A DNA stretch of 64,000 bases from NCBI RefSeq assembly GCF_003334305.1, contig NZ_QOWS01000008.1; one strand, 5' to 3'. The notes under the pieces were generated by a model, which saw only the letters and a program-made list of their open reading frames with translations, did no database searches and was not told the DNA's origin. This document shows positions 9,271 through 38,206 of this stretch, one piece after another. Source of the DNA: Escherichia coli. Its GTDB lineage: Bacteria; Pseudomonadota; Gammaproteobacteria; Enterobacterales; Enterobacteriaceae. The position numbers and the translations under genes were made by a program. Every line of letters begins with the position of its first letter. Position 1 is the stretch's first letter.

Positions 9271-9410
9271 CTTTATCCCTCATCGGAAAATGCGGAAATA
9301 AGCATACCCTGCCAGTTATGGTGTTGTCATCCGTCCACCCTCGCCACTAAACTGGAAGCAAGACCGTAGGCATTCCGCTTACGAAAAAATAACGAATTCA
9401 AGGAACTAAG

Positions 9411-10037
9411 ATGCTTTGGTCGTTTATCGCTGTCTGTCTTTCCGCATGGCTATCTGTGGATGCATCGTATCGTGGGCCAACCTGGCAACGCTGGGTGTTT
9501 AAACCGTTAACCCTTCTTCTCCTGCTGTTACTGGCCTGGCAAGCGCCGATGTTCGACGCCATTAGCTATCTGGTGCTGGCAGGGCTGTGCGCCTCACTGC
9601 TGGGCGATGCGCTAACCCTGTTGCCACGTCAACGTCTGATGTACGCCATCGGCGCGTTTTTCCTCTCGCACCTGCTGTACACCATCTATTTCGCCAGTCA
9701 GATGACGCTCTCTTTCTTCTGGCCTCTGCCACTGGTGTTGCTGGTTCTGGGTGCGCTGCTACTGGCGATTATCTGGACGCGGCTGGAAGAGTACCGTTGG
9801 CCTATCTGCACGTTTATCGGCATGACGCTGGTGATGGTGTGGCTGGCAGGTGAACTGTGGTTCTTCCGTCCGACCGCTCCGGCGCTCTCTGCGTTTGTTG
9901 GCGCTTCGTTGCTGTTTATCAGTAACTTTGTCTGGCTGGGGAGCCACTATCGCCGACGCTTCCGTGCGGATAACGCGATTGCTGCGGCCTGCTACTTTGC
10001 CGGTCACTTCCTCATCGTCCGCTCGCTGTATCTCTGA
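9411..10037 (+). CDS. yhhN: YhhN family inner membrane protein
   Basis: 208-aa polytopic membrane [31 protein letters not shown]... Confidence 0.85.
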
Positions 10038-10043
10038 TAAAAC

Positions 10044-10075
10044 TTGACTCTGGAGTCGACTCCAGAGTGTATCCT
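10044..10075 (+). promoter_or_regulatory. zntA promoter with ZntR (MerR-type) operator
   Basis: -35 TTGACT (10044..10049), perfect 22-bp palindrome ACTCTGGAGTCGACTCCAGAGT (10047..10068), -10 TATCCT (10070..10075); 20-bp spacer typical of MerR-family promoters. Confidence 0.8.
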
Positions 10076-10110
10076 TCGGTTAATGAGAAAAAACTTAACC
10101 GGAGGATGCC

Positions 10111-12309
10111 ATGTCGACTCCTGACAATCACGGCAAGAAAGCCCCTCAATTTGCTGCGTTCAAACCGCTAACTGCGGTACAGAACGCCAACGACTGTTGC
10201 TGCGACGGCGCATGTTCCAGCTCGCCAACGCTCTCTGAAAACGTCTCCGGCACCCGCTATAGCTGGAAAGTCAGCGGCATGGACTGCGCCGCCTGTGCGC
10301 GCAAGGTAGAAAATGCTGTGCGCCAGCTTGCAGGCGTGAATCAGGTGCAGGTGTTGTTCGCCACCGAAAAACTGGTGGTCGATGCCGACAATGACATTCG
10401 TGCACAAGTTGAATCTGCGGTGCAAAAAGCAGGCTATTCCCTGCGCGATGAACAGGCCGCCGAAGAACCGCAAGCATCACGCCTGAAAGAGAATCTGTCG
10501 CTGATTACGCTAATCGTGATGATGGCAATCAGCTGGGGTCTGGAGCAGTTCAATCATCCGTTCGGGCAACTGGCGTTTATCGCGACCACGCTGGTTGGGC
10601 TGTACCCGATTGCTCGTCAGGCATTACGGCTGATCAAATCAGGCAGTTACTTCGCCATTGAAACGTTAATGAGCGTAGCCGCTATTGGTGCGCTGTTTAT
10701 TGGCGCAACGGCTGAAGCTGCGATGGTGTTGCTGCTGTTTTTGATTGGTGAACGACTGGAAGGTTGGGCCGCCAGCCGCGCGCGTCAGGGCGTCAGCGCG
10801 TTAATGGCGCTGAAACCAGAAAACGCCACGCGCCTGCGTAACGGTGAGCGTGAAGAGGTGGCAATTAACAGCCTGCGCCCTGGCGATGTGATTGAAGTTG
10901 CGGCGGGTGGGCGTTTGCCTGCCGACGGTAAACTGCTCTCACCCTTTGCCAGTTTTGATGAAAGCGCCCTGACCGGCGAATCCATTCCGGTGGAGCGTGC
11001 GACGGGCGATAAAGTTCCTGCAGGCGCCACCAGCGTAGACCGTCTGGTGACGTTGGAAGTATTGTCCGAACCGGGAGCCAGCGCCATTGACCGGATTCTG
11101 AAACTGATCGAAGAAGCCGAAGAGCGTCGCGCTCCCATTGAGCGGTTTATCGACCGTTTCAGCCGCATTTATACGCCAGCAATTATGGCCGTCGCCCTGC
11201 TGGTAACGCTGGTGCCGCCGCTGCTGTTTGCCGCCAGCTGGCAAGAGTGGATTTATAAAGGCCTGACGCTGCTGCTGATTGGCTGCCCGTGTGCGTTAGT
11301 TATCTCCACGCCCGCGGCGATTACCTCCGGGCTGGCAGCAGCGGCACGTCGTGGGGCGTTGATTAAAGGCGGAGCGGCGCTGGAACAGCTGGGTCGTGTT
11401 ACTCAGGTGGCGTTTGATAAAACCGGTACGCTGACCGTCGGTAAACCGCGCGTTACCGCGATTCATCCGGCAACGGGTATTAGTGAATCTGAACTGCTGA
11501 CACTGGCGGCGGCGGTCGAGCAAGGCGCGACGCATCCACTGGCGCAGGCCATCGTACGCGAAGCACAGGTTGCTGAACTCGCCATTCCCACCGCCGAATC
11601 ACAGCGGGCGCTGGTCGGGTCTGGCATTGAAGCGCAGGTTAACGGTGAGCGCGTATTGATTTGCGCTGCCGGGAAACATCCCGCTGATGCATTTGCTGGT
11701 TTGATTAATGAACTGGAAAGCGCCGGGCAAACGGTTGTGCTGGTAGTACGTAATGATGACGTGCTGGGTATCATTGCATTGCAGGATACCCTGCGCGCCG
11801 ACGCAGCAACTGCCATCAGTGAACTGAACGCGCTGGGGGTTAAAGGAGTGATCCTCACCGGCGATAATCCACGCGCAGCGGCGGCAATTGCCGGGGAGCT
11901 GGGGCTGGAGTTTAAAGCGGGCCTATTGCCGGAAGATAAAGTCAAAGCGGTGACCAAGCTGAATCAACATGCGCCCCTGGCGATGGTCGGTGATGGTATT
12001 AACGACGCGCCAGCGATGAAAGCTGCCGCCATTGGGATTGCAATGGGCAGTGGCACAGACGTGGCGCTGGAAACCGCCGACGCAGCATTAACCCATAACC
12101 ACCTGCGCGGCCTGGTGCAAATGATTGAACTGGCACGCGCCACTCACGCCAATATCCGCCAGAACATCACTATTGCGCTGGGGCTGAAAGGGATCTTCCT
12201 CGTCACCACGCTGCTAGGGATGACCGGACTATGGCTGGCGGTGCTGGCAGATACCGGTGCGACCGTGCTGGTAACAGCGAATGCGTTAAGATTGTTGCGC
12301 AGGAGATAA
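10111..12309 (+). CDS. zntA: Zn(II)/Cd(II)/Pb(II)-translocating P-type ATPase ZntA
   Basis: 732 aa; N-terminal Cys-rich CCCDGAC plus GMDCAAC metal-binding motifs, CPC transmembrane motif, DKTGTLT phosphorylation site. Confidence 0.97.
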   Translation: MSTPDNHGKKAPQFAAFKPLTAVQNANDCCCDGACSSSPTLSENVSGTRYSWKVSGMDCAACARKVENAVRQLAGVNQVQVLFATEKLVVDADNDIRAQVESAVQKAGYSLRDEQAAEEPQASRLKENLSLITLIVMMAISWGLEQFNHPFGQLAFIATTLVGLYPIARQALRLIKSGSYFAIETLMSVAAIGALFIGATAEAAMVLLLFLIGERLEGWAASRARQGVSALMALKPENATRLRNGEREEVAINSLRPGDVIEVAAGGRLPADGKLLSPFASFDESALTGESIPVERATGDKVPAGATSVDRLVTLEVLSEPGASAIDRILKLIEEAEERRAPIERFIDRFSRIYTPAIMAVALLVTLVPPLLFAASWQEWIYKGLTLLLIGCPCALVISTPAAITSGLAAAARRGALIKGGAALEQLGRVTQVAFDKTGTLTVGKPRVTAIHPATGISESELLTLAAAVEQGATHPLAQAIVREAQVAELAIPTAESQRALVGSGIEAQVNGERVLICAAGKHPADAFAGLINELESAGQTVVLVVRNDDVLGIIALQDTLRADAATAISELNALGVKGVILTGDNPRAAAAIAGELGLEFKAGLLPEDKVKAVTKLNQHAPLAMVGDGINDAPAMKAAAIGIAMGSGTDVALETADAALTHNHLRGLVQMIELARATHANIRQNITIALGLKGIFLVTTLLGMTGLWLAVLADTGATVLVTANALRLLRRR

Positions 12310-22768: not shown

Positions 22769-23128
22769 TTATAAATGATTCAAACGCTCATTCAGTGTTT
22801 CAATAATATAGGTATTAACAGAGACTTGTTGCTGCGCAGCCGCATTATTAAGGCGTTCACTCAGCGATTCTGGATAGCGTAACGTAAAGGTCTTAATCTT
22901 TTCTGTACGCGCATACGGCTCAATACCCGCAGCTTTACAATCCTCAAGATACTCTCGCAGGGAAAGTTCCCCTTCTTTTTGCAGCCCCTGAATGCTGTCA
23001 GAGACAAAATCACAATAACCTGACAAGCCCAGGAATTTGCCACGAAATGCATTCAGTTCTGGCACGTAAGTGATAACTGCAGGTTGCCCGGCAATCTCCA
23101 TAGAGTTTGGCGTCTTCAGTTTGATCAT
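22769..23128 (-). CDS. HicB-family antitoxin-like protein with C-terminal ribbon-helix-helix
   Basis: 119 aa; C-terminal TLRYPESLSERLNNAAAQQQVSVNTYIIETLNERL resembles a CopG/RHH DNA-binding motif; ATG overlaps the stop of the upstream HicA-like ORF. Confidence 0.7.
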   Translation of the reverse strand: MIKLKTPNSMEIAGQPAVITYVPELNAFRGKFLGLSGYCDFVSDSIQGLQKEGELSLREYLEDCKAAGIEPYARTEKIKTFTLRYPESLSERLNNAAAQQQVSVNTYIIETLNERLNHL

Positions 23129-23400
23129 GGTTTTACCCCTATACTTAGTAACCAGTCACGCACGCTTTCTACAGCGCCTTTATCGGTATCTGGCGACGGA
23201 TGAGGCCGATGGAAACACGCAACGCTCATATTTAGTATGAACTTACAACGCGAACCTCTTCCTTCCTTAATTTCTCCGCCTAATGCTTTAACCAGTGACT
23301 CTATATCAGACCACTTGATCCCTTGAGGAACAGGAGTTTTAAATATTTGATCCAATGTATTTTTTTGTTTCTTCCGTAAAGCCTGTACCTTGGTTCTCAT
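23125..23400 (-). CDS. HicA-family toxin-like protein (putative mRNA interferase)
   Basis: 91 aa; ...IESLVKALGGEIKEGRGSRCKFILNMSVACFHRPHP... matches the HicA pattern (G..GS..K......HRPHP); AAGGA ribosome-binding site before ATG; 4-bp overlap with downstream antitoxin-like ORF. Confidence 0.7.
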   Translation of the reverse strand: MRTKVQALRKKQKNTLDQIFKTPVPQGIKWSDIESLVKALGGEIKEGRGSRCKFILNMSVACFHRPHPSPDTDKGAVESVRDWLLSIGVKP

Positions 23401-38175: not shown

Positions 38176-38206
38176 AACGCCCGCATATGCGGGCGTTTTG
38201 CTTTTT
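38176..38206 (+). terminator. Intrinsic terminator after uspA
   Basis: aacgcccgc-atat-gcgggcgtt stem-loop followed by ttttgctttttgg. Confidence 0.8.

Follow-up and report, generated by a model that had tools for sequence, protein, structure and literature searches.

The window, by which we mean the whole 64,000-nt stretch of Escherichia coli DNA that was analysed, carries the gene pair yhhN and zntA, with a promoter lying in the short interval between them (Table 1). The downstream open reading frame scores 1447 bits against the NCBIfam model NF033775 for ZntA (cut-off 1240). The stop codon of yhhN ends 6 nt 5′ of the −35 hexamer, a gap that leaves no room for a terminator, and a terminator scan returned no plus-strand terminator-like site between 10037 and 10111.

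Table 1. Features of the yhhN–zntA promoter region, in window positions
Feature	Position	Strand	Basis or remark
yhhN, upstream gene	9411–10037	+	ORF list and RefSeq annotation
−35 hexamer of PzntA, TTGACT	10044–10049	+	Direct read
ZntR operator, ACTCTGGAGTCGACTCCAGAGT, perfect 22-bp palindrome	10047–10068	none	Direct read and inverted-repeat finder
Spacer, ctggagtcgactccagagtg, 20 nt, over-long	10050–10069	+	Direct count
−10 hexamer of PzntA, TATCCT	10070–10075	+	Direct read
Inverted repeat	10069–10109	+	5′ arm 10069–10083 (−10 and start region), 3′ arm 10095–10109 (Shine–Dalgarno); function hypothetical
Predicted zntA transcription start, A at 10082 or 10083	10081–10083	+	Placed from the −10 hexamer only, ~7 nt after TATCCT
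zntA Shine–Dalgarno, GGAGG	10101–10105	+	Direct read; 5 nt 5′ of the ATG at 10111
zntA, Zn(II)/Cd(II)/Pb(II)-exporting P-type ATPase, 732 aa	10111–12309	+	ORF, RefSeq annotation and NF033775
Half-site repeat, GTCGACTCCTGA	10113–10124	+	11/12 match to operator right half, GTCGACTCCAGA

The operator consists of two halves of 11 nt each, ACTCTGGAGTC (10047–10057) and GACTCCAGAGT (10058–10068), which the inverted-repeat finder reports as 100% complementary with a gap of 0. It shares the three terminal bases of the −35 hexamer and ends one base before the −10 hexamer; the dyad centre, between 10057 and 10058, lies 8 bp past the former and 12 bp ahead of the latter. The optimal spacer for sigma-70 promoters is 17 bp, and a standard promoter scan of 9400–10700 found no promoter with the usual 16–18 nt spacing, which fits an activator-dependent promoter that overcomes a bad spacer. 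The end of the −10 hexamer is 35 nt from the zntA ATG. The accessible genome-wide start-site and operon datasets yielded no entry for a mapped zntA start, and the start in Table 1 is accordingly a predicted one. The earlier note had placed TTGACT and TATCCT 20 bp apart at 10044–10075, overlapped by a perfect 22-bp palindrome, and every coordinate and string in that description proved correct.

The same arrangement is found throughout the species. Every one of the 5426 complete E. coli genomes has a match to the surrounding 1.3 kb, with flanking genes annotated as yhhN and zntA. Identity is 100% in H15 and 2013C-3181, among other strains, and 95–99% in most of the rest. The 32-mer that spans the promoter is present in 5414 of these 5426 genomes, and never on plasmids. 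In K-12 MG1655 the promoter stretch is found base for base at 3,606,384–3,606,415, as is the leader, with the zntA ATG at 3,606,451. The source strain of the window is an E. coli other than K-12, and the promoter does not differ from K-12 PzntA: counted from the −35 hexamer, the two agree at every base from at least −20 to +90, with the same flanking genes, operator consensus, −35 hexamer and 20-bp spacer.

The regulator gene itself lies elsewhere. A tblastn search did not find zntR in the 64-kb window (best E-value 3.3). In K-12 MG1655 zntR occupies 3,438,705–3,439,130, ~167 kb from the identical promoter, and ZntR therefore acts in trans, as noted also in PMC7911910 and PMC1526738; that the window’s own strain has zntR is assumed from the species.

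Over its length the window is colinear with strain H15, from livH to gadX, at 99.98% identity, and the H15 annotation supplies coordinates for several further features. These are a hicAB toxin–antitoxin pair between nikR and yhhJ (~22769–23400), a frameshifted DUF4049 pseudogene adjoining yhiJ (~30646–32234), and an extra ArsR/SmtB-family regulator with a permease past arsRBC (~48402–49800). The nik and ars loci are the other metal-regulated loci of the window.

Conservation of the operator and its 20-bp spacer

Some components of this promoter are of a kind that chance can supply. In 64 kb, ~0.015 perfect palindromes of 22 bp are expected, and the 11-nt half-length was reached in 4 of 200 windows simulated under a Markov-1 model. 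The window holds a second such palindrome, AACGCCCGCATATGCGGGCGTT at 38176–38197, which is followed by TTTTGCTTTTT just past uspA and is an ordinary intrinsic terminator of that gene; a perfect 22-bp palindrome alone is thus not diagnostic of an operator. The hexamer pattern TTGACN-N19/20-TANNNT has four matches in the window, about the chance expectation. The operator sequence occurs once in the 64 kb, with no further ZntR-like site at up to 3 mismatches, and none of 100 shuffled sequences contained a match. What is not due to chance is the conjunction: an operator in register with both hexamers, directly 5′ of zntA, and kept across species.

For the cross-species comparison we searched 100,044 species, each represented by one genome, with the 18-bp core TCTGGAGTCGACTCCAGA only, so that both hexamers (except the T that ends the −35) and the palindrome bases beyond the core were left free. 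The scan returned 111 loci, 105 of them zntA promoters: a zntA homologue starts 47–70 nt downstream in 101, and in the other four the stored DNA stops at what is the same promoter, truncated. Five loci have the same operator in a different context, and one (L061, Steroidobacter) lacks a −35 hexamer, has a T7 run past the palindrome and is a look-alike terminator. The gene order extends upstream as well, with yhhN directly 5′ on the same strand as zntA in 100 of 101 loci of other species; yhhN–zntA is likewise handled as one unit, and placed in a Fur-like cluster, in a transcriptome study of Yersinia pestis (PMC2231364).

Together with the window, the 101 complete loci form a scored set of 102 sequences, which were picked by a perfect core, so that operator conservation is partly by construction and the flanks alone are an independent test. 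Those flanks are strikingly constant. TTGAC, outside the query, is invariant in 102/102, as are the outer AC and GT of the 22-mer beyond the 18-mer core (102/102) and the last spacer base, G, in the 102 sequences; the scored species are related, however, and these counts are not independent events. At exactly 20 bp past the −35 hexamer stands TATCCT in 51 sequences, TATGCT in 32, CATACT in 8, TAGGAT in 4 and one of six rarer forms in 7 (n = 102). Within this hexamer A2 and T6 are both present in 102/102 and T1 in 94/102, while positions 3–5 are variable. The bases immediately 5′ of the −35 hexamer vary freely across loci, and this variation at neighbouring positions indicates divergence enough for unconstrained bases to have changed. 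Judged from the aligned sequences, the pattern is the signature of a real −10 hexamer at a fixed distance of 20 bp, and the hexamer counts illustrate selection on that spacing and on the T, A and T of the −10, with the rest drifting.

The five sites away from zntA also have TTGAYT and NANNNT exactly 20 bp apart. Two of them, in Enterobacteriaceae (L019 and L050), read TTGATT-20-TACATT or TACCCT and precede the gene of a small secreted BsmA/DUF1471-like protein. The others are TTGACT-20-CACAAT in an Acidobacteria MAG (L052), TTGACT-20-CATACT in Pseudoxanthomonas (L111) and TTGACT-20-CAGACT in Labilithrix (L096); a MerR-family metal regulator is encoded directly 3′ of the site in L052 and L111. 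These five may be extra targets of ZntR type, or may be the sign of a widely shared operator.

Identity of the promoter and competing readings

The primary footprint and primer-extension papers for PzntA are said to be those of Brocklehurst et al. 1999 and Outten et al. 1999. Secondary sources agree with the architecture in the window. The ZntR operator consensus is given together with a 20-bp spacer in PMC1526738, and the window operator is identical to the printed consensus at 22/22 positions. TTGACT is the −35 hexamer common to PmerT, PzntA and PpbrA (PMC3431237), and the same paper, from the Brown/Hobman laboratory that mapped PzntA, gives the MerR-family spacing as 19 bp “except ZntR (20 bp)”. 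The 20-bp figure is repeated, with identical operators in Enterobacter, in PMC7911910. The comparison with the published footprint that the earlier note had suggested comes out in favour of its placement, here by way of a secondary source: PMC3431237 describes ZntR DNase I protection as consistent with coverage of the −35 hexamer, the spacer and the −10 hexamer.

ZntR binding, the footprint, the dependence on zinc and the distortion mechanism are thus taken from the literature. A long spacer misaligns the hexamers, and the metal-bound regulator distorts and underwinds the operator, which realigns them (PMC9909328, PMC2611976 and PMC9189660). Activation by ZntR extends to heterologous RNA polymerases (PMC9909328), Zn-ZntR drives run-off transcription of zntA in vitro (PMC2611976), and PzntA passes from repression at low zinc to ~10-fold activation (PMC9189660). 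The effect of apo-ZntR is disputed, with ~4-fold stimulation in one paper (PMC2611976) as against repression at low zinc in another (PMC9189660).

Among the readings that compete with this one, the nearest concerns the spacer, which would truly be 19 bp if the −10 hexamer lay one base further upstream, as GTATCC. A 19-bp spacer is stated for PzntA in PMC9189660 and is the norm for MerR, CueR and PbrR promoters. Direct counting from TTGACT to TATCCT, however, gives 20 nt, the figure of three other papers (PMC7911910, PMC3431237 and PMC1526738), one of them from the promoter-mapping laboratory. The comparison across species points the same way: the hexamers at 19 nt would be GTATCC, GTATGC, GCATAC and GTAGGA, with an invariant G1 and without the A2/T6 signature that is universal at 20 nt. 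We consider a 19-bp spacer very improbable; the figure in PMC9189660 is imprecise, and is contradicted by the sequence and by the conservation pattern.

A palindrome of this kind might also act as RNA, as a hairpin or an intrinsic terminator of yhhN or of a minus-strand transcript, rather than as a protein operator. A consensus terminator scan did flag the operator as a minus-strand terminator, with a 9-bp stem followed by CAAGTTTTAT; in the Steroidobacter locus the same core, with its T7 run and no −35 hexamer, is terminator-like; and the operator would fold in a read-through RNA (10038–10113). On the plus strand, however, the palindrome is followed 3′ by GTGTATCC, which holds no U-tract, and yhhN and zntA both lie on that strand, so that no minus-strand gene ends here and the minus-strand call made by the pattern scan is spurious. 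A hairpin requires complementarity only, yet the sequence is invariant and stands with the promoter hexamers at a fixed register, even in distant phyla, and published ZntR binding goes to exactly this operator consensus (PMC1526738). We therefore reject a terminator at the zntA locus, on the missing plus-strand U-tract, the invariant sequence and the conserved hexamers, and give a purely RNA-level role of the palindrome next to no weight. Equally negligible is the chance that the site serves a different or additional MerR-family regulator, such as CueR or another paralogue, and not ZntR specifically. MerR-family operators do have a common overall layout, and the same core adjoins other merR-type genes in distant bacteria, but the CueR consensus differs (ACCTTCC..GGAAGGT in a 19-bp spacer; PMC1526738), and zntA is the only known ZntR target, with PzntA responding to titrated ZntR (PMC9189660).

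We conclude that the element is PzntA, the sigma-70 promoter of zntA under control of the MerR-family zinc sensor ZntR acting in trans, with a probability of roughly 97%; no observation runs counter to this reading. The architecture, the identity with K-12, the identity of the downstream gene and the evolutionary constraint on the bases that the model needs are all shown by the present analysis. The promoter is already known and is not a discovery. Its assignment in the earlier note as a ZntR-type zntA promoter holds on the K-12 identity, the NF033775 score, the 22/22 match to the ZntR consensus, and the −35 hexamer and 20-bp spacing of the literature. The use proposed for it there, as an internal positive control, is likewise sound: a known switch was placed correctly to the base, which gives a trustworthy yardstick for the note’s other metal-regulation calls in the window, where the nik and ars regions are also present.

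According to the model, TTGACT and TATCCT would be adequate hexamers, but at 20 bp apart, as compared to ~17, they would be too far from each other and out of phase for RNA polymerase; bare of its regulator, a promoter with such over-long, out-of-phase spacing would thus be weak. A ZntR dimer would occupy the 22-bp palindrome that fills the spacer and, without zinc, would keep the promoter poorly active or repressed. On binding Zn(II) (also Cd or Pb), ZntR would kink and underwind the centre of the operator, shortening and re-phasing the spacer until the −35 and −10 hexamers are both contactable. Transcription of zntA would then rise, and the pump would lower cytoplasmic metal.

This promoter can be compared to PmerT of Tn21/Tn501, the MerR-activated founding member of the class, which also has a TTGACT −35 hexamer. 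In both, a dyad operator fills an over-long spacer, the regulator sits between the two hexamers, and it activates by distorting the DNA. The PmerT spacer is 19 bp as compared to 20 bp in PzntA, and, set against the Tn501 sequence, the extra base pair of PzntA presumably falls between the dyad centre and the −10 hexamer. In PmerT the merR gene diverges from the same region, whereas zntR is unlinked, ~167 kb off, and the PmerT dyad is shorter, of other sequence and of a 7-4-7 type (PMC1526738). PcopA with CueR and PpbrA with PbrR have the same MerR-family layout as PzntA, each driving a metal-efflux P-type ATPase; unlike PzntA, they have 19-bp spacers, other half-sites and other metals.

An inverted repeat joining the −10 region to the ribosome-binding site

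The zntA leader contains a further inverted repeat. The inverted-repeat finder pairs 10069–10083 (G-TATCCT-TCGGTTAA) with 10095–10109 (TTAACCGGAGGATGC), an arrangement that sets GGAGG opposite the 3′ half of the −10 hexamer. As RNA, the segment from the −10 hexamer to the ATG (10066–10113) folds at −21.1 kcal/mol (z = −5.8), and addition of the operator hairpin (10038–10113) brings this to −35.8 kcal/mol (z = −8.0). The fold from the predicted +1 (10082–10135) has −6.8 kcal/mol (z = +0.2). The same arrangement is present in every Enterobacteriaceae promoter examined, the fold energies running from −12 to −29 kcal/mol, and the length of the repeat across species is 13–17 bp. Most species have a longer form, TCC-CCGGTTAATGA-gaaaatta-TCATTAACCGG-AGGA, of which Escherichia has lost the inner five pairs and kept the outer stem. 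Seven Erwiniaceae have unrelated GC-rich hairpins at the same place that only abut the Shine–Dalgarno sequence.

The helix was scored on an alignment of 67 sequences. Pairing holds in 87.6% of cells, as compared to 30–58% with the partners slid by 1–3 columns, and two-sided changes occur in 20 cells, a number reached by none of 500 shuffles; the helix scored in this way was hand-written from the same sequences and is to that extent biased towards structure. Compensatory examples include a change from U-A to G-C at one pair in nine sequences and from G-C to A-U at another in seven. In the pairs TAAGCTTCCGG...CCGGAAGCT and TGCTTCCGG...CCGGAGGCA the −10 bases and the post-Shine–Dalgarno bases change together, which is suggestive. 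The extent of covariation is modest, and shared phylogeny makes the sequences correlated. RNAalifold returned no consensus structure for the 67 unique −10-to-ATG sequences, probably owing to register shifts from indels.

The predicted accessibility of the Shine–Dalgarno sequence depends on where the transcript begins. Its mean probability of being unpaired is 0.10 (median 0.002) in the read-through transcript and 0.37 (median 0.30) in the transcript from the predicted +1, with 0.25 in a control whose upstream 48 nt were shuffled; for the window itself the values are 0.00 in read-through as compared to 0.74 in its own transcript. Of 92 sequences, 22 (e.g. from Enterobacter and Kluyvera) show no predicted gain of this kind.

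Searches for a known element gave little. The leader hairpin has no match in Rfam beyond sub-threshold eukaryotic miRNA precursors (20 bits as compared to a gathering score of 80), hits attributable to the long inverted repeat. A Fur box in the AT-rich leader palindrome was considered and rejected, the best matches of 11–12/19 being equal to those of AT-rich 55-nt windows drawn at random from these loci, and a Zur box was set aside at 10–11/23 against a Zur consensus; the E. coli window has lost the inner segment that holds this AT-rich palindrome. The open-access literature searched contained no description of a zntA leader hairpin or of yhhN–zntA read-through.

A last feature of the leader region is the half-site repeat within codons 1–5 of zntA (ATG TCG ACT CCT GAC). 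In 46 of 102 species the match to GTCGACTCCAGAGT is 12/14 or better, reaching up to 13/14 in Kluyvera, Enterobacter and Klebsiella. Codon usage is uneven at this point: among 64 proteins that start with MSTP, Ser2 is TCG in 64/64, with ACT in 41 and CCA in 45. The repeat could be a duplication relic, an RNA partner of the left operator arm in read-through, an anti-Shine–Dalgarno element (it has CUCC) or a weak extra contact for ZntR.

A possible second layer of zntA control

These features suggest, as a tentative model with a minority chance of being right, a two-layer module in which ZntA would be gated transcriptionally by ZntR and translationally by the point at which the transcript starts. 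With no terminator after yhhN, read-through RNA would hold both arms of the inverted repeat, fold at −21 kcal/mol and hide the ribosome-binding site. Transcripts activated by ZntR would begin inside the 5′ arm, so that the hairpin could not form and the ribosome-binding site would be exposed. The CC of TATCCT, which is unusual, would be selected as an anti-Shine–Dalgarno sequence, and the half-site repeat in codons 1–5 might help to occlude the site or offer ZntR a second contact. Alternatively, the inverted repeat could be a 3′-end or stability hairpin of the yhhN mRNA, a 5′-terminal stabiliser, or a site that acts at the DNA level.

There is a parallel for such a device. Fold-back inhibition of translation was reportedly described for the IS10 transposase by Davis, Simons and Kleckner in 1985, and is said to operate similarly in other insertion sequences. 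In IS10 the ribosome-binding site pairs, by way of an inverted repeat, with a segment that lies 5′ of the element’s own start, and only transcripts from outside are silenced. The same fold-back logic is proposed here for zntA, where it is computational and built on a predicted start.

Any potential for discovery at this locus is confined to the pairing of the −10 and start region with the ribosome-binding site. If the model is true, a tightly regulated toxic-metal pump would be insulated from its upstream gene without a terminator.
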